Assembly (NCBI RefSeq): GCF_934196125.1
Contig: NZ_CAKPVT010000003.1
Source: an uncultured Streptococcus sp.
Lineage (GTDB): Bacteria; Bacillota; Bacilli; Lactobacillales; Streptococcaceae
DNA: 64,000 nt
Direction: 5' to 3' (one strand)
The position numbers and the translations under genes were made by a program. The notes under the pieces are model-generated. The model was given only the letters and a program-made list of their open reading frames with translations. It was not told the DNA's origin and made no database searches. Positions within the stretch are counted from its first letter, which is position 1; each line of letters starts with the position of its first letter. Shown one piece after another: positions 6,860 through 36,568 of the stretch.

Positions 6860-7035
6860 GGTTTATGAAAGTTTTCTGCAAGGATAAGTTAAGCTTTGCT
6901 TCTTATAATGACCCTATCAAATGAAACGAGAGGTAAAGCTTATGACAGTAAAAGTAACCTACAAAAAGTATTTTGCCCAAAAAATTCATGTGAAACCAGC
7001 TTACGGAAAGTAAGCTGAAAAAAGGGTACTCTTTT

Positions 7036-7410
7036 TTGATAAAACGCTATGGTACAAGATGTGTCTTAGTACAGATAATACAGGGACTATTAGTGATATC
7101 GTTAATTTTTCCTTGTAAGTATTTTAACCTTCCAATTCCAGATGTTGCCCTAATTATTATTTCATCTTGTATTACAATATGTATTGAATTGCCTATCAAT
7201 TATAAAAATACCTATTCACCTGCTAATTGTACACTTGCTAATGCGACATTTATTATTTCATGTACAGCTGTGCAAAATACAGGCATATTTGCTAGTAGAG
7301 TTTTAGAGTGTATTGCTGGATTTTTGATTGGATATTTTGTCGGTTCTGTTGCAAAGTTTTCCGAAAAAATCTATTTTAGTGTATTAATTAACCTTCAATG
7401 TATTCTTTGA
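7036..7410 (+). CDS. Hypothetical Cys-rich small membrane protein (doubtful)
   Basis: 124-aa ORF with a TTG start and no clear SD, in an AT-rich 530-bp gap. Its 3' end overlaps the convergent ansA by about 20 bp. Confidence 0.15.
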   Translation: MIKRYGTRCVLVQIIQGLLVISLIFPCKYFNLPIPDVALIIISSCITICIELPINYKNTYSPANCTLANATFIISCTAVQNTGIFASRVLECIAGFLIGYFVGSVAKFSEKIYFSVLINLQCIL

Positions 7411-18704: not shown

Positions 18705-19256
18705 ATGTTCGTTTTATTATTACTAGTCATCAGTTTAGTCTTCTGTATCGTTTACTTCAGGAAGAAGTCTAACTGGCTGCTATGGTTTAATCTTGTTTTT
18801 GTTTTATTGACATTTTTCTATAAGTTGACTAAAATAGGGCTGGCTAGTCAAGATTTAGCTTTACGAATTAATTATGATTACTATCTATTTTCTTTATCAG
18901 TAATTGCATTTCTTTTCGGAATTGTTGTTAATATCCTCTATATCTATGAGGATAGTTGGTTAGAAAAGTTAGTTCTAGGCTTTGGCTTAGTTGTTGGTTC
19001 AGTTTTTATCTTTTTTGTGCCTTTCTCATTTTACTATGCTTCGGGAGCTATTAGTGAATATGAAACCATTAGAGAAAATGGTAAAACTTATGTTTTAGCG
19101 GGAGAAAGTTTTAATTTTCATCGTTCTTTTCGTCATAAGTATGAGGTGGTGTCTAAATATCTCCGCCATGCTAAACCGATTGATTATGATATTGATCATC
19201 TTAGTGAACGATTTAATGATGGTAAATCTTACGAAGATTATTATGATATCAAATAA
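18705..19256 (+). CDS. Hypothetical polytopic membrane protein (AT-rich accessory DNA)
   Basis: 183 aa with about 4 TM helices. RBS ttggag. Marks the start of a low-GC island directly after gatB. Confidence 0.45.
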   Translation: MFVLLLLVISLVFCIVYFRKKSNWLLWFNLVFVLLTFFYKLTKIGLASQDLALRINYDYYLFSLSVIAFLFGIVVNILYIYEDSWLEKLVLGFGLVVGSVFIFFVPFSFYYASGAISEYETIRENGKTYVLAGESFNFHRSFRHKYEVVSKYLRHAKPIDYDIDHLSERFNDGKSYEDYYDIK

Positions 19257-19596: not shown

Positions 19597-19598
19597 GA

Positions 19599-19733
19599 GT
19601 TCCATCGGGTAATGAAGCTGGAGCTTGGCAAGGAATGTGGATACCAGGTGGTTTTACAAATGCAGGAATCCCAGAAGCAGTTATTAATCAGATCCTCTCA
19701 GATGGATATAAAGTAATAGATGTATTTAAATAA
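19599..19733 (+). pseudogene. Remnant of the last about 45 codons of a toxin-like gene (VPSGNEAGAWQGMWIPGGFTNAGIPEAVINQILSDGYKVIDVFK*), with no start codon
   Basis: The open frame runs without ATG/RBS into a stop that sits 17 bp before the RBS of the downstream immunity-like gene. Its position mirrors the toxin C-termini of the cassettes downstream. Confidence 0.3.
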
Positions 19734-19750: not shown

Positions 19751-20093
19751 TGGAGGAAATATTTCCAGGAAATGGTTTTGCAGTTGTAAAAAAAAAGATA
19801 ATACGTACACAATTGAATGGCCTCAAGGGCCATTTGACCAGACAGTTTCTTACCCAATAACCAAAGAATTGGCAGATAAAGCTTTCAGATTCTATGACGA
19901 TGCTTATGAAGTAATGATATATGCTGAGACTGGTTTGTGGCCAGAAAAAAATACAGAAGATGAAGAAAATGAACGAGTAAGAAAATTCCCAGAGTTATTG
20001 ATAAAAGTTCCTGATAATCAAGATTTATTTACAGAAGAAGAATTGAAAACATTGATACCTTTAGGAGAAAAAAGTTTATCAGAAGAAGAGTAA
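19751..20093 (+). pseudogene. Immunity-like small acidic protein interrupted by a +/-1 frameshift in an A9 homopolymer (19788-19796)
   Basis: RBS aaaggcgg. ATG at 19751 gives MEEIFPGNGFAVVKKK, then 9 A's. Beyond that the other frame continues DNTYTIEWPQGPFDQ...EELKTLIPLGEKSLSEEE up to 20093. Confidence 0.45.
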
Positions 20094-20105
20094 TTTAATA
20101 AAGTA

Positions 20106-20261
20106 AAAAGGCACTTTACTATCTGATTGGCGTCGGATAGTAAAGCCTTGACTAGTAAGAGTGAACTCACTAATCAAGTTGCCAATAGCTAACAAAAAGC
20201 TAGCTGTATTTATTGTACAAAAATTCAAAGGACTTTTCTAGTCTTTTTGAGTGTTTCTTAA
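20106..20261 (+). repeat. Cassette-junction repeat, copy 1 (12-bp-stem inverted repeat plus conserved spacer), ending at the toxin-module start
   Basis: Nearly identical to 21104-21260 apart from compensatory changes in the hairpin arms. Hairpin 20110-20147. Confidence 0.85.
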
Positions 20262-20837
20262 ATGTACAATCATTTCAGTAGCATGGTCAAAGGTGCTTCA
20301 TCCACGAAGATGGAGCATGTCGTGAAGATGATGCAGAATAGTGGTAGAAGTAATTATAAAAATATTATGACCCAAGCTAAGAATCTTCAAACTGCACAAG
20401 CGCTCCTAAATGAGAAAGCCAGTGGGGCTGGTGAATTTAATATAAATGAAATTCGACCAAAATTAAAAACAGATTCAGATACTGCATTTTTCTGGTCTGG
20501 TAGAACAGATGGTGTTGGAGGAGCTGACATAGCAGCAAATGTAGCAAAAGGTAAAGGCGGTACGACTTTAGAGTCAACAATAGCGAATAAAAATATTAAA
20601 ATGCCTGAATGGGATTTTAATAACCCAAGTTCAATGGAAGCTTGGGACTTGGCTTCAGGAGCTTATGCAGAACAAGTTTCTGGTCAGGTTCGTGCAGTAG
20701 TAGGTTCAGAGTTGAGACCTGGCAATATATGGGAAAATGTGGAGTTACCTCGATTAAAAAGTAATCCTAACGTAACTCAAATTACTACAATTGACCCAAA
20801 AACAGGAATTGAAAAAATCATTTTTGAAAGGAAGTAA
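20262..20837 (+). CDS. Orphan polymorphic-toxin C-terminal module 1 (conserved 56-aa N-terminal segment plus variable 135-aa domain of unknown activity)
   Basis: The first 168 nt are near-identical to the 21261 paralogue, then diverge sharply. No SD in front of the ATG (…gtgtttcttaaATG). Followed by a small gene with an RBS. Confidence 0.55.
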   Translation: MYNHFSSMVKGASSTKMEHVVKMMQNSGRSNYKNIMTQAKNLQTAQALLNEKASGAGEFNINEIRPKLKTDSDTAFFWSGRTDGVGGADIAANVAKGKGGTTLESTIANKNIKMPEWDFNNPSSMEAWDLASGAYAEQVSGQVRAVVGSELRPGNIWENVELPRLKSNPNVTQITTIDPKTGIEKIIFERK

Positions 20838-20842
20838 ATTAA

Positions 20843-21076
20843 ATGAAAATTACAGGGAGTAGCTCACACGTGAAATTTGATTTAGAAAATGGATATGCGG
20901 TGAAGGCAGACGGAGAAATGTTAGTAGGAGGGAAATTTGTAGCTTTTAAAGATTCAATGAAAAATTGGGAGCCACCACATGAAAATGAAGAACTTTCAGA
21001 AAAAGAAATTCAAGAAATTATTCAGCAGGTAAAAGAAAATACAAACGAAAATACTGTGCAAATTTCATTTGAATAA
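20843..21076 (+). CDS. Putative cognate immunity protein 1 (77 aa, acidic)
   Basis: Strong RBS aaaggaag. Starts 5 bp after the toxin-module stop. Confidence 0.5.
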   Translation: MKITGSSSHVKFDLENGYAVKADGEMLVGGKFVAFKDSMKNWEPPHENEELSEKEIQEIIQQVKENTNENTVQISFE

Positions 21077-21103
21077 ATAAGTAATATATTGAATTTAAAA
21101 ATA

Positions 21104-21260
21104 AAAAAGGCACTTTATCACTAGACTGGTAATCAAGTGATAAAGCCTTGACTAGTAAGCATACACTCATTAATCAAGTTGCCAATAGCTACCAAAAGAT
21201 AGCTGTATTTATTGTACGAAACTTCAAGGGACTTTTCTAGTCTTTTTGAGTGTTTCTTAG
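21104..21260 (+). repeat. Cassette-junction repeat, copy 2
   Basis: Hairpin 21109-21147 (GGCACTTTATCACT...AGTGATAAAGCC) followed by a conserved 110-bp spacer. Confidence 0.85.
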
Positions 21261-21884
21261 GTGTACAATCATTTCAGTAGCATGGTCAAAGGAGCTTCAT
21301 CCACGAAGATGGAGCATGTCGTGAAGATGATGCAGAATAGTGGTAGAAGTAATTATAAAAATATTATGACCCAAGCTAAGAATCTTCAAACTGCACAAGC
21401 GCTCCTAAATGAGAAAGCCAGTGGGGCTAATAATTTCAAATTTGGAAATAATTCAAAGAATCATTTGAAAAATGTAGAGGTGGTCAATACTAAAAGAGGG
21501 GTTGTTGGTGGTCATAATATGGATGATTTCAACAATGCACTTAAAAATCAAGGATTTAATCCAGAAGACTTGATTGTTTCAAAAAAACCACACCCAACTA
21601 TTGATGGCATTTATGAAGTTGAATACAAAATACCTAGAAAAGATATGGCTGGTAATGTTGCGGAACCAATATCTTATAAGAATATTGAAAAACCAAAAAC
21701 AGTTTATGCCCCAACAAAAATTAGTGACAATCAAATGTATGAATGGGGGCAGACTGCCATGAATAATGGGAAAATCCAACCAGACGGTCGAACAATTATT
21801 GGAACTTCTCCAAACGGTGTAAAATTTATAGGCTATTTAAATGACGCAGGAGAAGTAACTAATTTTTTCCCTGTATTAAATTAG
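21261..21884 (+). CDS. Orphan polymorphic-toxin C-terminal module 2 (same conserved 56-aa head, different 150-aa variable domain; possible nuclease-type fold)
   Basis: GTG where copy 1 has ATG, and no SD. The variable part (GGHNMDDF...KTVYAPT...NFFPVLN) is unrelated to module 1. Confidence 0.55.
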   Translation: MYNHFSSMVKGASSTKMEHVVKMMQNSGRSNYKNIMTQAKNLQTAQALLNEKASGANNFKFGNNSKNHLKNVEVVNTKRGVVGGHNMDDFNNALKNQGFNPEDLIVSKKPHPTIDGIYEVEYKIPRKDMAGNVAEPISYKNIEKPKTVYAPTKISDNQMYEWGQTAMNNGKIQPDGRTIIGTSPNGVKFIGYLNDAGEVTNFFPVLN

Positions 21885-21904: not shown

Positions 21905-22294
21905 ATGGAAAATGAATTTCAAATTTTAAATGATAAGAAAAGTATAGATCAATTAATGTTAACCTATTTTTCAATAGTAAGTGGAAAAGATTTAGAAAGA
22001 GCTTTATCTGCTTTTAAAGAAGAAAAAGGATATGGAATAGAAATAGTTTTTGTTTCTTTTAAAAATGATTTAGATGACTACGATATGATGCAGTTACCTA
22101 AAACATTAGATGATAATCATGTTTTAGTTGAATTAGGTTCTCCAGCTGTCGAAGTAGATCAAATAGCATATTTAGACTTTAAAACTTTTTATGATTATTT
22201 AGCTGAGAACGTAAAAAAAGAGATAGAAAAAAATTCAGAAGAAAGTGCATTAATAGAACTTTTAAAACAAGTTAAAATCAGTTTGGAGATATAG
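21905..22294 (+). CDS. Putative cognate immunity protein 2 (about 130 aa)
   Basis: Starts 6-20 bp after the module 2 stop (TTG 21890 or ATG 21905). Acidic, with no TM helices. Confidence 0.45.
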   Translation: MENEFQILNDKKSIDQLMLTYFSIVSGKDLERALSAFKEEKGYGIEIVFVSFKNDLDDYDMMQLPKTLDDNHVLVELGSPAVEVDQIAYLDFKTFYDYLAENVKKEIEKNSEESALIELLKQVKISLEI

Positions 22295-22316
22295 TTTTTA
22301 TAAAATAAAAATGGTA

Positions 22317-22430
22317 AGTGATAAAGCCTCGAATAGTAAGGTCTAAACTCACTAATCAAGTTTCTGATAGATACTAATATAAAAAAGTGTAACGTATTTA
22401 TTTAAGAATACATTACACTTTTTTTGTTTG
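22317..22430 (+). terminator. Partial third junction repeat (right arm only) followed by a strong rho-independent terminator (22381-22426)
   Basis: agtgataaagcc...aactcactaatcaag shared with copies 1 and 2, then GTGTAACGTATT...AATACATTACAC followed by TTTTTTT. Confidence 0.6.
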
Positions 22431-22626: not shown

Positions 22627-24981
22627 TTATGAATTTAAAGGACGTAATTGACCATTTTTCAAGGAAGGATCGTATCGAAACGAATATTTACCAACAAAGT
22701 TAATATGCTCAAAGAGAAGTGGTGACAACTTATTGATTTTCTCTTCTGAACAATCAAATCCTTCAATACGCATTTGGTCAATTACTCTTTCTAAATAAAG
22801 TGTATTCCAATAAATGATGGCATTTGTCACAATGCTGAGAGCAGTCAATTGCTCTTCCATTCCGTCAATATAGGTTTGATAAAGTTTGCCCTTTTTTCCA
22901 TAAAATATGTGGCGACATAATGTATGTCTTGCTTCTCCTTTATTCAGCTGTTCTAAAATCTGTCTTGCGTAAATTTCATCAGAGATATAGCGTAATTGAT
23001 GCTTTGTTTTATATACTTTTCCATACTCAATAATGGCTTTTCCTAGCTCTGTTGGTTGGCCATTGCGTTGAAGTGCTTTTGTTAATTCTATCGCATTCAC
23101 TTTTCCTGATTTCAAGGAACCTGCTACTCGAAGTATTTCACTCCAGTTTTTTTCTATTCGAGCAATGTTGATTTTATTTTGAGAAACTTCATTTAACATT
23201 TTATAGTCTGCAGTTAAGTCTATTCGCCAAAGTTTTGTTCCATGGTTGTTAGCAATTCGTGGGCTAAATTGGAACCCTAACAAGCCAAAAAGTCCAAATA
23301 CTAAGTCACTATATCCGGCTGTATCTGGCATGATTTGTTTCGGTTCTAAGCCACTTGTTTGATTTAAAAAACCATCCAATAAGTACAAAGAATCACGCAA
23401 TGTTCCTGGAACAACCATTCCATGAAAGCCTATATATTGATCAGAAACAAAGTTGTAAAATGTGATTCTACGACCACGGCCAAAATATTTTGGATTGCTT
23501 CTAGAATATAAGGAACGTTGTGGTGTGGTATAACGAATGCCATCGGCTGAAGCCATCTGATTCGTTCCCCATACACGAGAAGTAGGTAGTTCTTTGTATG
23601 CAGAAATAATTTTTTTATTTGTTGCTGACAGTGTATCCAATCGAACATATTGGTGATTGACGTACATTAGCCGATCATATTTTAAACTCTCGATTCCTTC
23701 TTTAGATACTGGAGAAAAAACAATATTACAGGCTTCTGCTAAAAGTACTGCTAGAACACTAATATCTAGGTGATCCATACGCGTATTCGATTCATTAATA
23801 TGGTGGAAACAGGAGGTTAAATCAAGTTGTTGATTTACCTCCAATAATAAATCTGGAAGATCAATTTTGGGCATTAATGCTTTTACGCGATTTTTGAACT
23901 GCTTATCTTCCTTATGTTCACGTGTTTTTCGGAGTTTAGACACGATAATTTTATCTTTGTTCTCCTGTTTTTCAATTCTAGCCATTTCAGAATGAGGCCA
24001 TTTTTTTATTGTTTCGTTATAAGACAGACTTAAAACTTCTTCTAATTGTTTTATTGCTTCAGTAGAAGATCTAGGTAATTCCAATTGAGAGAGTAAACTT
24101 TCTTTTTGCTGTTCCCACGTATCTTCACTGATTAAACAACTCATTGGATCAATGAATCTTTCACTTTTAGGTACAAATATATCATGTTTATTCAAGCTTT
24201 GGATTAGTAACTCAACACCTAGAATAAGCATACTTTGATTGACTTCATTAGGGTTAGAGTGAATATAATAAGCCCATTTCTTTGGTATATGATTTTCAAC
24301 AGATTCAAATTGTCTAAAGGTAATTGGCTTTGGAAATCTACGTCGAATTAAGTACCACACTGCCATACAATCTTCACCATAGTGGCCATTTTCTATTGTT
24401 AATGTTTCAATAATCAAAGGAATAAACTTTCGAATTTTACGATAAGATTGAATTAATTCTGCGATTGCAATAGGTTCTTGTTCATTTTTAACAAGTTTCT
24501 TTACTTGAAACACCGCATTTACAATATCCTCTGCTGGATATTGGTCAAACACTCGGCTTCGCAGACAATCATTTTCAATAGAATCGTCTAAAAATAGTTC
24601 AACTATTTCAGATAGAGTAAATGCTGCACGATCCAAATCTTTTAACGTTCGTAGTCGCTCTTTTGATTCTTTATTTTTTGCTCGTCTAAAAATTGACTCA
24701 TAATATTTTATTAAAGCTGTAAGTAATTCGTCTGTAGCAATCTTTTCATACTCATACACAAAAGCAACTAAAAGGGCTAATTTTTTCTGAATACTCATTC
24801 TTTGAATAAGGCTTGATTTGGCTTTAAAAGCGTAGGCAGCTAAATGTTTTATTTTCCCTTCAGGGATAGTTGAGAAATCCCATTTACTCGTATGAAACTG
24901 CTGGAATTCCTTTAATCGATGAAAACCACGAATGATTTCTTTCCTACTTTCATCAATTAAAGGAGCTCGTAAAATATCCAT
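22627..24981 (-). mobile_element. tnpA: Tn3-family transposase TnpA (784 aa), probably 5'-truncated; one-ended transposon remnant
   Basis: C-terminal Tn3 DDE-domain motifs (LTKALQRNG...WNTLY...GKYSFR). About 200 aa shorter than typical TnpA. No resolvase or res site, and no RBS context upstream. Confidence 0.75.
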
Positions 24982-26530: not shown

Positions 26531-26612
26531 TGAGTGTTACCATTAAGGCAACCAATGCAACTAGCAATGTTCCAAACTGGAACATCAAACCAATTGCTTC
26601 AGCAACAGACAA
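26490..26612 (-). CDS. Small hydrophobic holin-like toxin peptide (Hol-Tox-like, 40 aa, TTG start)
   Basis: (L)SVAEAIGLMFQFGTLLVALVALMVTLSKNNNRTASSQAH: a single TM helix with a basic tail. SD gaaggga 10 nt upstream. Confidence 0.35.
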   Translation of the reverse strand: MSVAEAIGLMFQFGTLLVALVALMVTLSKNNNRTASSQAH

Positions 26613-26949
26613 AAATGCTATTCCCTTCTACGAAGTAGGAAAATGCTCATAAGCATCACCCCCTGAATAGCCAACCGCCATAAACTTACTACGTCAATTA
26701 GTATATCATAATTATAGGCCTAATTATTTTGCTGCTTTATCGGGATTTCTAATGGTGAAGGAAGATACAACTAGCTGTTTTTTACTGTTGAAATGACCCT
26801 CAACAGAAATATTGTACTTTCCATCTTGTAGCATTAACAGTAATGTCGTTAATTCAGGATTCACTACAATGCAATTATAAGATCGATGAATCGTTGTTAA
26901 CGCAAACCAGGAGTTCAAATTTTCTGATTATGCAGTCAACATCTAACAC

Positions 26950-28269: not shown

Positions 28270-29153
28270 GAAGGAAATCGATTAGCGGCTTATCGATTTA
28301 TTCAGCAGTATGGGCGCAAATACGGTGTCCGTTGGTTATTGAAAAGACTGAACATCTTACCAAATGCTTATTATAATTTAATTTCTTGAAAAACAGGAAA
28401 TCTGAATATAATAAGCACAAGGTCAAAATCAAGCATGAAATTGTGGATATCTATCACGCTCACAACGGCACTGATGGTTACAGAACTGTGCATGCTTATC
28501 TTCTTCGCAAGGGATACAGCATCAGTTGTGTAACTGTCCATAAGTACATGAATACAGAGCTTCAGTTATTTTCAATTACAAGGAAACGCAAGCCAGACTA
28601 TGAATATGGGGCTCCTCACAAAGTGTTTGAAAATAAGCTCCATCAGGATTTTAAGGCAGAATCCATAAACCAGAAATGGTGCACTGATTTTACCTATTTA
28701 TTCTTAACGGATGGTAGCAAACGTTATAACTGTACAATCATTGATCTGCATGATAGAAGTGTTATTGCCAGCATTACCGATAAGCACATAACAGCGGATC
28801 TTGCAAAGAAAACACTGCAGAAGGCAATTGATTCATAACCGGAATTAGATACTAACCATTTAATTTTACACTCGGATCAAGGAAGTCAGTTTACCTCAAA
28901 GGAATTCACGGAATACTGTGAGTCAGTTGGTATCACGCAAAGCATGAGCAAAGCTGGATATCCGTATGATAATGCTCCTATGGAACGTTATTACAATACT
29001 CTCAAGAATGAACTGATTAATCATCATTACTATCATTCTGAGAAAGAATTATATACATCCATTGAAGAATTTGCGTATGTTCATTACAATCACGAACGAC
29101 CGCATTCTTATAACAATTATAAAACACCTTTTGAGGCACGTTACGGGGCATGA
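28270..29153 (+). pseudogene. IS3-family transposase OrfB (integrase core), disrupted
   Basis: The OrfB N-terminus (AAYRFIQQYGRKYGVRWLLKRL) is in one frame and the DDE core (WCTDFTY...HSDQGSQFTS...ERPH) in two others, interrupted by a frameshift and a TAA. Confidence 0.8.
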
Positions 29154-29189: not shown

Positions 29190-29624
29190 AAAAAGTGGAT
29201 AGATGTCAATAAAATAGACACAAAAAGAGAAGATACTTAAAGACATTCAAAGTACAGAGCCTCCTTTTCATTTGGTGTAAGCATATCTAAGGTGCCATGA
29301 GGACGTTTGGTGTTATAGAATCCTTCAATGTAAGCGAAACAAGCTAACCGTACTTCTTCGATTGAATGAAATGAACGGCGGTTTAATTCTTCTTTTTTCA
29401 TATATTTTAAAAAAGCTTCGGTGACAGCGTTATCCCACGGATAACCTGGTTTAGAAAGAGAATGGACAATCGGATGATGCTCTATAAACTTTCTAAATTC
29501 TAAAGAGGTATATTGAGAACCTTGATCTGTATGAAAAAGAACAGGACTCATTAAATTTCGAGAATGAAGTGCTTTATCTAATGTTTTAATAGCTAGGTTT
29601 GTATCAATTAGTGGAAGGATCTTG
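29190..29624 (-). pseudogene. 3' fragment of a second IS3-family transposase OrfB (IS3/IS861 group), 5'-truncated, abutting the first IS
   Basis: ...LIDTNLAIKTL...FHTDQGSQYTS...YPWDNAVTE...KRPH. The element end TGTACTTTGAATG... lies directly against the right IR of the first IS. Confidence 0.7.
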
Positions 29625-30041
29625 GATCGTTTGGGAGCTAAAAAGCCAATTATCTTTGGGGGAAGCATGCTTGTCTTTGCTCTTTGTCTTTATAGTATTT
29701 TTGGCTTGCATTTATCAAATGCTTGGTTGACAATTTTCTACATCTTATCAATGGGTGGAACTGGAATTGCTTTTGGTAATGTCATGACAAGTGGTCAAAA
29801 ACAAGTAGCACTTAAGGAGCGTGCAGATGCTAACGTAATTTTTAATACACTACAACAATTTGCTGGTGCTGTTGGAACAACAATCGCTTCACTGGTTGTA
29901 GCCTTAAGCCAAACAAACAGCAGCCTTAGTTACTCTGCAGCAACAGCCCAAGGTTCACGCAACGCTTTTATCGTCTTGCTCATTCTAGCAGCTGTCGAAC
30001 TTGTTATCTTACTACGAGTTGTTGACGGAAAAGAAAAATAA
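29622..30041 (+). pseudogene. C-terminal fragment (about 4 TM helices) of an MFS transporter truncated by IS insertion
   Basis: LGAKKPIIFGGSMLVFALCLY... has MFS C-terminal topology. No start codon or RBS. The N-terminal portion is replaced by IS3 fragments. Confidence 0.55.
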
Positions 30042-36247: not shown

Positions 36248-36568
36248 TTAGAATCCGAAACTTCGCTCACTTTCTAATGAACTAACCTTTCCTTTTTTTA
36301 TTTTTGCCCCTTCTTTTTCTACCCATTTCTCATATCGCTGTATAAAACGTGTTTCTTCTTCATCTTTAAATCCTTCAAAAACAACTTCATCGATATCTTC
36401 ATCATTAAAATAAAAAACTTGTTCTGGATCTAACCCTTCAGGGTAACGTGCACCAGTATAATCAAAATAAACTTTCTGCCCCTCATGATCAATCAATGGT
36501 CCACGGTTTAAAATCATAATTTTTTGATTTCCTTCTGCTAAATAAACGGTACTTCCAATTGATAACAT
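36248..36568 (-). CDS. DUF4176-family protein (family recurrent in type VII secretion / LXG toxin loci)
   Basis: MLSIGSTVYLAEGNQKIMILNRGPLIDHEGQKVYFDYTGARYPEGL matches the DUF4176 pattern. Followed by a hairpin GCCTA-ttaca-TAGGC. Confidence 0.55.
   Translation of the reverse strand: MLSIGSTVYLAEGNQKIMILNRGPLIDHEGQKVYFDYTGARYPEGLDPEQVFYFNDEDIDEVVFEGFKDEEETRFIQRYEKWVEKEGAKIKKGKVSSLESERSFGF

Follow-up and report, generated by a model that had tools for sequence, protein, structure and literature searches.

Orphan toxin cassettes of a Streptococcus genome share a coding head and a conserved structured element at their junctions

The DNA analysed here (the window) is a stretch of 64,000 nucleotides of contig NZ_CAKPVT010000003.1, from an uncultured Streptococcus sp. 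(assembly GCF_934196125.1). The host belongs to the equinus/bovis group of Streptococcus, its GatB and CodY sequences clustering with those of S. equinus, S. lutetiensis and S. infantarius. Downstream of gatCAB the window carries an array of orphan toxin cassettes, and this report concerns the junctions of that array, where a non-coding hairpin unit (hereafter element E) and a spacer precede the shared 5' end of the next toxin gene (the coding head). Loci from other genomes are referred to by L-numbers (L001, L004 and so on) and homologous proteins by P-numbers.

The cassette array and its coding head

Reading rightwards, the region begins at 18705 with two small membrane proteins, which are followed by the remnant of a toxin C-terminal domain (…RVPSGNEAGAWQGMWIPGGFTNAGIPEAVINQILSDGYKVIDVFK*; 19598–19733, + strand, from translation). 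The remnant lacks a start codon of its own and matches no Pfam family at threshold, and it is found in every sister-strain locus. Next come an immunity-like pseudogene (19751–20093, +), frameshifted in an A-run near 19790–19800 as judged from the reading frames, and orphan toxin cassette 1 (20262–20837, +), which consists of the head and a C-terminal domain of unknown family and has a near-identical counterpart in protein P0033; its mechanical open reading frame (ORF) opens at ATG 20262, and gene callers start it at ATG 20283. Immunity gene 1 (20843–21076, +) belongs to the Imm74 family (PF15603, E = 1.5e-13). Orphan toxin cassette 2 (21261–21884, +) joins the head (to 21428) to an EndoU nuclease domain (PF14436, E = 1.4e-17), and is followed by immunity gene 2 (21905–22294, +; 129 aa from its ATG), whose C-terminus recurs in L035 and L048 and whose homologues come after EndoU toxins in Listeria. 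The array is closed by a strong bidirectional intrinsic terminator (22381–22426, both strands, from folding), where a weak sau-5971-like Rfam alignment covers the terminator stem alone, and is bordered by an N-terminally truncated transposase gene of the Tn3 family (22627–24981, −). The EndoU and Imm74 matches confirm the toxin and immunity modules that the first-pass annotation of this DNA had proposed. A domain search of the cassettes and related proteins gave no N-terminal domain besides the head, and inspection of the sequence revealed no Shine–Dalgarno motif before ATG 20262, ATG 20283 or GTG 21261. A + strand promoter for the orphans was also considered and set aside, as inspection gave no convincing −35/−10 pair.

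The two head copies (20262–20429 and 21261–21428) are 98.8% identical. Copy 1 encodes the 3' end of a PT-TG pre-toxin region (…MVKGASSTKMEHVVKMMQNSGRSNYKNIMTQAKNLQTAQALLNEKASGA; 20270–20429, +) up to the boundary GAGAAAGCCAGTGGGGCT (EKASGA), and homology searches identify the head as the end of the pre-toxin region in PT-TG (PF14449) proteins of 265–306 aa, after which the toxin domain differs from protein to protein. Copy 1 shows 93–98% DNA identity to the heads of the long genes in L001, L004 and L049, and over the long PT-TG genes of 296–306 aa in sister strains the identity of the head is 93–100%; the homology begins at a TTTCAG microhomology. The possibility that the 160-bp junction before the head is degenerate coding sequence of a long toxin was rejected, given stop codons in three frames and the lack of similarity to PT-TG.

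What the head can do is best read from sister strains. Their loci are metagenome assemblies, recovered as contigs that encode PT-TG-head proteins and carry the same gatCAB-linked locus, and in them the stretch that separates the immunity-like pseudogene from the first orphan holds a long PT-TG gene together with an immunity gene. In block comparison, L001 turns into L004 once the DNA that separates the long-gene head from that of a deaminase orphan is removed, and L004 in turn becomes L049 by loss of the DNA from the long-gene head to that of an EndoU orphan; at both deletions the two alignments overlap by the 150-bp head. Deaminase, EndoU and NS_2 nuclease domains each occur as an orphan and as a long-gene fusion, and other strains have the C-terminal domain of the window EndoU orphan attached to their long PT-TG gene (P0080). 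The two natural head-to-head deletions thus mark the head as a working handle for homologous recombination, and these variants of metagenome assemblies indicate that recombination through the shared head exchanges the toxin domain. The head (~150–168 bp) supplies the homology for ordinary RecA-type recombination by which the toxin domain of the long gene is chosen, RecA being the presumed enzyme.

The long direct repeats of the window had been put forward as a substrate for duplication, deletion or swapping of cassettes. This holds for the coding head, by virtue of the two natural deletions, and not for the non-coding 160 bp as mere homology, since that part is a structured element found across genera; among the natural events, none with a crossover inside the non-coding junction was found. 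Swapping within the window itself is not upheld, because the long gene has been deleted there and no full-length or long toxin gene is left as a partner.

The immunity-like pseudogene records how the long gene was lost. Up to 19976, 73 of its 74 informative sites agree with the upstream paralogue, and from 20061 on all informative sites agree with the downstream 117-aa paralogue of L001, as does the junction that follows, so that a clean crossover between immunity paralogues is placed at 19977–20060. Judged from these sites, the crossover deleted the long PT-TG toxin gene from the window strain, and the resulting chimeric pseudogene explains the presence of orphans without a long PT-TG gene. 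An alternative route, from the L004 arrangement by a microhomology deletion at the A-run, is ruled out by the same sites, which call for a homologous crossover instead.

In other strains of the same species (L064–L066) a second array, which uses the same PT-TG gene, is found downstream of recG, with EndoU, deaminase, TNT and further domains, each then followed by element E. The recG counterpart in the window (6860–7410) contains only a 124-aa ORF without a Pfam match, and no copy of E.

The DNA of the boundary where the head ends, GAGAAAGCCAGTGG(G/A)(G/C)CT (EKASGA; 20413–20430 and 21412–21429 in the window), is itself conserved and also present at KASG sites in L011–L066. It recurs over unrelated scaffolds (LXG proteins, LysM-rich wall proteins and PT-TG) and over genera. 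The EKASGA boundary is the Gram-positive analogue of the CdiA VENN motif, and the DNA that encodes it is a possible crossover or target site.

Copies, structure and strand of element E

The non-coding part of the junction occurs at 20106–20261 and 21104–21260, copies that the first-pass annotation had reported and that were recovered by repeat detection and MAFFT alignment; pattern searches gave 3 and 2 matches, against 0.07 and 0.00 expected from shuffles. The description of these copies as nearly identical fits the head and, within the junction, its 3' two-thirds; it does not fit hairpin 1 or the loop of the second hairpin. Overall junction identity is 84.7% (133/157), made up of 69% in hairpin 1 and 89.6% in the rest of the junction, with 56–59% in the flanks. 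When a covariance model was run over the whole window with filters off, it found three copies of E only, all on the minus strand.

On that strand the order of parts is hairpin 3, closing stem, hairpin 2, hairpin 1 and U-tract. In copy 1 (109-nt model, 20098–20206, −; 122.6 bits, E = 5e-28) these are hairpin 3 at 20187–20205 (from folding), the closing stem GGC/GCC at 20181–20183 paired with 20110–20112, hairpin 2 with arms at 20166–20178 and 20147–20159 and its loop at 20160–20165, hairpin 1, which is the hairpin first noticed, at 20110–20147, and the U-tract at 20105–20109. Copy 2 (21097–21205, −; 125 bits, E = 1.4e-28) carries the other stem allele in hairpin 1 (21109–21147, from folding), with hairpin 2 at 21147–21178 (loop 21160–21165), hairpin 3 at 21187–21204 and the U-tract at 21103–21108. 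The compensatory differences between the two stems (CTATC/GATAG versus TCACT/AGTGA) are real. What had been overlooked are the two further conserved hairpins and, before the hairpin on the + strand, an A-run that is the U-tract of the − strand. A third, partial copy at the end of the array was likewise found as described (about 22317–22377, with one hairpin arm gone and then the strong bidirectional terminator), and the covariance model and alignment outline it as a decayed copy 3 (22301–22389, −; 36.8 bits) in which hairpin 2 is retained (22328–22360), hairpin 1 is one-armed and hairpin 3 is replaced; the same terminal variant is present in L004 and in Enterococcus plantarum L027. The central loops differ in all three copies (AGTGAA, CATACA and GTCTAAA). 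E is non-coding, with stop codons in all + frames, and a conserved small ORF on the − strand, the idea being a type I toxin, was rejected because variation in loop length breaks any frame.

Beyond the window, a scan for the exact core pattern, covering one genome per species, returned 38 genome loci, the carriers being many Enterococcus species, Listeria goaensis, L. floridensis, L. immobilis, Pseudolactococcus piscium, Bacillus and a Streptococcaceae metagenome-assembled genome. nhmmer and the covariance model together gave 85 matches to E, 80 of them distinct and often in arrays spaced 1.1–1.5 kb. In 51 of the 54 copies checked (50 distinct upstream proteins) the core is preceded on the same strand by a small ORF, diverse from copy to copy, whose end lies 21–117 nt away. 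The ORF before this immunity-like ORF is a polymorphic toxin (EndoU 6, PT-TG 5, LXG 4, deaminases, Ntox15/24/30, TreTu_C and CdiA_C), and most of the 35 genes in that position encode a toxin domain, a pre-toxin domain or the (E/K)KASGA motif of the boundary; the sole clearly unrelated neighbour, for acetolactate decarboxylase, adjoins a truncated copy of E. Several of the toxins before E are full-length LXG proteins, and hence E also follows the first, non-orphan cassette. Copies in other genomes are thus tied to toxin cassettes, and the pattern of a generic scattered repeat such as BOX or RUP, which the first-pass annotation had named as the finding that would count against it, was not seen.

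E is nearly absent from viruses, with 0–1 matches in 2.9 million viral contigs, and a phage association was dropped on that count; in the plasmid collection one unannotated Enterococcus raffinosus megaplasmid matched. No Rfam family matches E: at gathering thresholds Rfam 15 matched only rli28 (26543–26715) in the whole window and nothing at the junctions, and at E ≤ 10 over the 3.5-kb region the best alignment reached E = 0.64 and 23 bits, where the gathering thresholds are 54–90. Within the literature searched, the E core sequences did not occur in papers and no prior description of E was found. In Enterococcus sp. BWB1-3, six copies (L014-169, L021-1413, L021-7019, L036-193, L043+865 and L046+6240) are interrupted at the same point in hairpin 3 and continue into an identical unrelated GCAAGTTACTAAAATAAATCATATTTTTAGAGTTGAGGATTGTGTAAAACACTGAATA, which suggests another element or a rearrangement with its breakpoint in hairpin 3.

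Across the 80 distinct copies, 9 of the 12 pairs of hairpin 1 change on both sides; one of these, for example, occurs as CG in 34, as UA in 28 and as UG in 13. Covariation extends to 5 of 7 pairs in hairpin 3 and to 2 of 3 in the closing stem. The fraction of paired cells is 91.7%, versus 32–47% when partners are slid, and 0 of 500 shuffles reach the observed values. The earlier suggestion that the hairpin is under structural selection is well borne out by these double changes and the paired fraction. Hairpin 1 comes in at least three stem alleles plus sub-variants. Hairpin 2 is built differently, with sequence-conserved arms of 13 nt around a loop of 6 or 7 nt that takes 44 distinct forms among the 80 copies. 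RNAalifold, run on the raw MAFFT alignment, recovered part of hairpin 1 only, together with the strand difference described below.

Several lines of evidence place the fold on the minus strand. First, wobble cells that pair on one strand only number 310 for the minus strand versus 63 for the plus strand in the model alignment (19 versus 7 when counted per pair, sign test p = 0.03), and 228 versus 57 in a structure-blind MAFFT alignment. Second, two fixed G–U pairs of hairpin 2 are C–A/A–C mismatches on the + strand. Third, the − strand is the more stable one in 43 of 52 variants of hairpin 1 (mean energy on the − strand −12.6 kcal/mol) and in 41 of 42 of hairpin 2, and for the whole element the mean minimum free energy is −35.8 kcal/mol on the − strand against −25.8 kcal/mol on the + strand, the − strand being better in 58 of 60 copies. 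Lastly, a U-tract (T5–7; at least 4) directly follows hairpin 1 on the − strand in 58 of 60 copies. The tail on the + strand is CCTTGACTAG, which does not qualify as that of an intrinsic terminator. The statement that the hairpin has no U-tract and is not a classic terminator is therefore correct for the + strand and incorrect for the − strand. With a conserved U5–7 directly after its stem, hairpin 1 has the form of a canonical intrinsic terminator read antisense, predicted to point at the 3' end of the immunity gene, opposite to the toxin genes.

The spacer harbours a candidate promoter for such a transcript. In spacer copy 1 (20207–20269) the promoter scan placed a −10 box TACAAT at 20217–20212 and a −35 box TAGAAA at 20240–20235 (−); a small palindrome GGACTTTTCTAGTC (20230–20243) and a second TGTACAAT box (20262–20269, +) lie in the same spacer. 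Spacer copy 2 (21206–21268) has its −10 box TACAAT at 21216–21211 and its −35 box TAGAAA at 21239–21234 (−), and TAGAAA-N17-TACAAT is thus found on the − strand at the same site in both copies. The candidate −10 box ends 5–6 nt before the first hairpin on that strand and lies at a fixed distance from the start of the model in ~40 of 65 distinct contexts, and its variants (TACTAT, TACACT, TACAGT and TACATT) all keep A2 and T6.

Taking these results together, we think it somewhat probable that the repeats join the cassettes of a 'decapitated' orphan array, with the head serving as recombination homology and E with its spacer as a conserved module, an antisense RNA gene. E (~110 nt), next to the 60-nt spacer, is a conserved non-coding marker of cassette 3' ends in several Firmicute genera, and it would be the gene for a small antisense RNA of ~105 nt, with TAGAAA-N17-TACAAT as promoter and hairpin 1 as terminator. 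The RNA would likely act in cis on a read-through transcript of the toxin array, or else as a protein-bound structured RNA; a trans-acting small RNA that pairs through a seed is disfavoured by conserved stems combined with hypervariable loops.

A number of observations weigh against this interpretation. Covariation in hairpin 2 is nearly nil (1 of 13 pairs), part of the conservation of its stem is an ascertainment effect of the search pattern, and the hairpin may be a palindrome bound by a protein at the DNA level. Covariation was counted per sequence, over copies that are related, rather than per event, and the three main alleles of hairpin 1 are inherited as blocks and tend to accompany the immunity gene before them. 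The promoter matches at the level of the consensus, its −35 box being weak and an extended −10 lacking, and copies of E at array ends have hairpins 1–3 and lack the promoter box, so that one must suppose either that these copies are relics or that the promoter has been misread. Neither a secretion domain nor a ribosome-binding site can be recognised in the long 'parent' PT-TG gene, so that fusion to it would not necessarily reconstitute a functional toxin, and that gene may itself be a long orphan. With regard to strand, stem allele A has a U–G pair on the + strand, copy L031-6295 folds better on the + strand and has three transitions that keep pairing only there, and + strand folds beat shuffles (z = −4.4 and −2.3).

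The last three observations, together with the fixed orientation of E and its start ~10–80 nt (from the A-run) after the immunity stop codon, speak for an RNA element of the plus strand. This would lie in the 3' untranslated region of the immunity gene or between the cistrons of an array transcript and would end transcripts without a U-tract, as a factor-dependent terminator, or else stabilise their 3' ends or direct their processing, which is essentially how the first-pass annotation read it. We consider such an element improbable, as it has no U-tract on its own strand and leaves the conserved A-run before the hairpin without a role. In addition, wobble pairs favour the − strand by ~4–5 to 1, the fixed G–U pairs of hairpin 2 would become mismatches, and the mean minimum free energy is 10 kcal/mol worse on the + strand.

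We give equally little credence to the view that the junction has no function of its own, being a hitch-hiking scar kept similar by recent transfer and gene conversion and offering extra homology only. Recent transfer is indicated by toxin domains that are 72–91% identical between the window Streptococcus, Listeria and Enterococcus, and a scar would fit the joint travel of hairpin-1 alleles and immunity genes, the decayed copies at array ends and the presence of the window copies in an array without a long toxin gene. There has nevertheless been time enough for the 44 loops of hairpin 2 to arise, with the stems still paired via compensatory and wobble intermediates. The immunity genes beside E are mutually unrelated, yet E is ~90% conserved across genera, and both the U-tract and the −10 box retain the positions that matter.

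The junction spacer and an apparent mobile element with an IS110-family recombinase

A probable origin of the spacer is indicated by other genomes, where it is homologous to the stretch between E and the gene for a 92-aa protein (P92) of a mobile element. At many other loci the spacer runs past TCATTTCAG into a leader with a strong + strand terminator, after which come the 92-aa protein (no Pfam match), a helix-turn-helix (HTH_3) gene on the opposite strand, sometimes a Rep_trans gene, and then an IS110-family DEDD recombinase (409 aa). The recombinase gene is followed at a distance of about 70 nt by CCC(A/G)AGAAAGCCAGTGG, the EKASG boundary of the next (orphan) toxin domain. The gene order E-P92-HTH_3-(Rep_trans)-IS110 is seen in L014, L016, L018, L023, L024, L039 and L046, and partly in L033 and L064, and at least seven loci have an IS110 gene in the interval from E to the KASGA boundary that follows. 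L020 and L045 represent a minimal form, with the IS110 unit alone inserted inside hairpin 3 of E. The E-P92-HTH-IS110 unit looks like a mobile element specific for the boundaries of toxin cassettes.

In L018, L023, L046 and others the leader carries a + strand intrinsic terminator (AAACGGTATTAGTGAGG…CCACTGATACCGTTTTTT) ~100–190 nt downstream of E. It sits ~25–35 nt before the ribosome-binding site of the 92-aa gene, has its wobble pair on the + strand, and is reminiscent of an attenuator or leader. We also considered the leader and the 92-aa gene as the start of an LXG operon (Lap-like), and discarded this because no Pfam family matches the protein and the genes after it encode HTH, Rep_trans and IS110 proteins, not an LXG toxin.

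The window spacer switches to the PT-TG head at the TTTCAG microhomology. By comparison with the other loci, the left part of the mobile element is the probable source of E and the spacer, which would have been fused to the head at TTTCAG and propagated with it. There is no IS110 gene in the window.

The company of IS110 genes raises the question of whether E is a site at the DNA level, such as a recombinase boundary (IS110-family or attC-like), the single-strand origin of a Rep_trans element, or an operator for the HTH protein. Strand-specific folding and a structure kept while the sequence varies are hallmarks of attC sites and single-strand origins too; hairpin 2, with conserved 13-nt arms, a hypervariable centre of 6–7 nt and no covariation, would suit such a site, as would the IS110 insertions inside hairpin 3 and the IS110 genes that lie, with HTH_3 and sometimes Rep_trans, between E and the KASGA boundary. 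We nonetheless regard a DNA-level site as very doubtful. No recombinase, Rep or HTH gene adjoins E in the window or in many other arrays, the conserved T-run is left unexplained, and attC R/L boxes are missing, as is an integron integrase. Neighbouring copies have different central spacers, between which a core-site model of the tyrosine-recombinase kind would forbid recombination. Guide complementarity of the bridge-RNA type, sought between the non-coding region at the IS110 left end and the KASGA flank, amounts to just 7–9 nt and exceeds shuffles in 1 of 7 copies, and was rejected as not significant.

An extension of the antisense reading links E to the arrival of the cassettes themselves. 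We put it forward tentatively, as a somewhat unlikely model in which KASGA-type cassettes would be delivered by a dedicated mobile element of 3–4.3 kb that integrates at the boundary. The element would comprise E as a small-RNA gene, a divergent promoter region, the attenuator-like leader, the 92-aa protein, the HTH protein, an optional Rep_trans/MOB_T-like protein and an IS110 recombinase of the bridge-RNA type. It would integrate exactly at the GAGAAAGCCAGTGG (EKASG) boundary of a resident toxin gene, whereby a new toxin domain and its immunity gene would be fused in frame and the previous domain pushed downstream as an orphan. On this model the window junctions would be relics of such insertions and E the antisense regulator of the mobile element. 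The order found in other loci, namely toxin–immunity, E, mobile element, KASGA and older toxin domain, fits this delivery; the 8-kb loci used are too short for mapping empty sites. A 2025 preprint notes no more than that mobile elements, IS110 among them, are in general enriched near PT-TG toxins.

Known systems and neighbouring features

The swapping of orphan domains is an established concept for Rhs and contact-dependent inhibition (CDI) systems. The window cassettes resemble CdiA-CT/CdiI, Rhs and LXG orphans in being toxin–immunity pairs without a secretion domain, with a short 5' stretch of homology to a long gene through which they can swap. They differ from these in that the swap is documented by natural variants at one locus and in that the window has lost the long gene. 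Their boundary is EKASGA instead of VENN or PxxxxDPxGL, and, unlike described CDI, Rhs and LXG orphans, every cassette ends in a conserved structured non-coding element. For LXG toxins, orphans downstream of type VII secretion system (T7SS) loci are known from Enterococcus faecalis (OG1RF_11111, OG1RF_11113 and OG1RF_11123), and toxin-domain swapping was proposed there (PMC7790226); according to a 2026 review, domain reconstitution is undemonstrated for LXG-type modules (PMC13492133). Homologous recombination between tandem immunity paralogues in T7SS loci was described by Garrett et al. 2022 (PMC9484751). The crossover at 19977–20060 is of the same kind, in that recombination of paralogous immunity genes deletes everything between them, except that the deletion in the window took the long toxin gene itself and left orphans only.

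As a predicted terminator, hairpin 1 has the usual make-up of a ~13-bp stem-loop, with its GGC/GCC base and U5–7 next to it, and a stem sequence that is free as long as it pairs. It departs from typical intrinsic terminators in its AT-rich stem, its place within a three-hairpin unit and its orientation antisense to all neighbours. An instructive parallel is RNA II of the par (Fst) locus on the Enterococcus plasmid pAD1, a convergent cis-antisense RNA that shares a terminator with its target. By analogy, the RNA from E would be a small structured RNA directed towards the 3' end of a toxin-related mRNA, where complementary terminators and loops could start kissing contacts and variation in the loops could give copy-specific pairing. 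Unlike RNA II, E is associated with no small toxic peptide ORF and has no sequence similarity to it, and its partner would be the 3' end of the immunity transcript or a read-through RNA.

Integron attC sites offer a further comparison, since they likewise lie at cassette 3' ends, form imperfect palindromes in which structure matters more than sequence, and fold on the strand opposite to the coding strand. E differs from them in lacking R/L core boxes, in its conserved T-run, in being mostly conserved in sequence and in its Firmicute hosts, and neither the surroundings of the array in the window nor the most frequent families of 150 neighbouring proteins included an integrase. Like BOX, RUP, REP/BIME and Correia/NIME repeats, E is multi-copy, intergenic and hairpin-forming. 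REP, dRS3 and attC are targets of IS110-family elements, and IS110 copies are similarly located in or near E. In contrast to BOX, RUP and REP repeats, E nearly always follows a toxin–immunity pair in one orientation and has no Rfam match.

The biology of the cassettes is known, and we rate element E and its link to the IS110 element as a novel variation on it. Orphan cassettes are thought to be a reservoir for changing weapons; this locus gives natural swaps resolved to the base, and also the opposite outcome, in which the long gene is lost and a silent archive is left. Such cassettes end, in at least five genera, in the same structured element of ~110 nt, which is absent from Rfam. If E is transcribed, it would represent a new RNA family tied to interbacterial toxin loci that could regulate read-through into downstream cassettes, and E with the EKASGA-coding motif would be a universal landmark for delimiting toxin–immunity cassettes in genomes and metagenomes. 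The recurrence of an IS110-recombinase element at the same boundaries suggests a testable mechanism of cassette acquisition.

Some further features lie to the right of the array. The Tn3-family transposase that borders it has lost its first ~190 residues (NF033527 matched from profile position 192), and in some sister strains (L049 and L050) its gene is two ORFs. The rli28 match (RF01492, a Listeria small RNA) at 26543–26715 (−) is full length and scores 54.7 bits against a cut-off of 45; in this Streptococcus it lies between a Bax1-I family gene and a 175-aa ORF. A DUF4176 gene (36248–36568, −) is located 14 kb from the array, a family that commonly adjoins LXG toxins of T7SS loci, and two rve-type integrase fragments (28386–28838, +, and 29237–29668, −) lie between it and the array.

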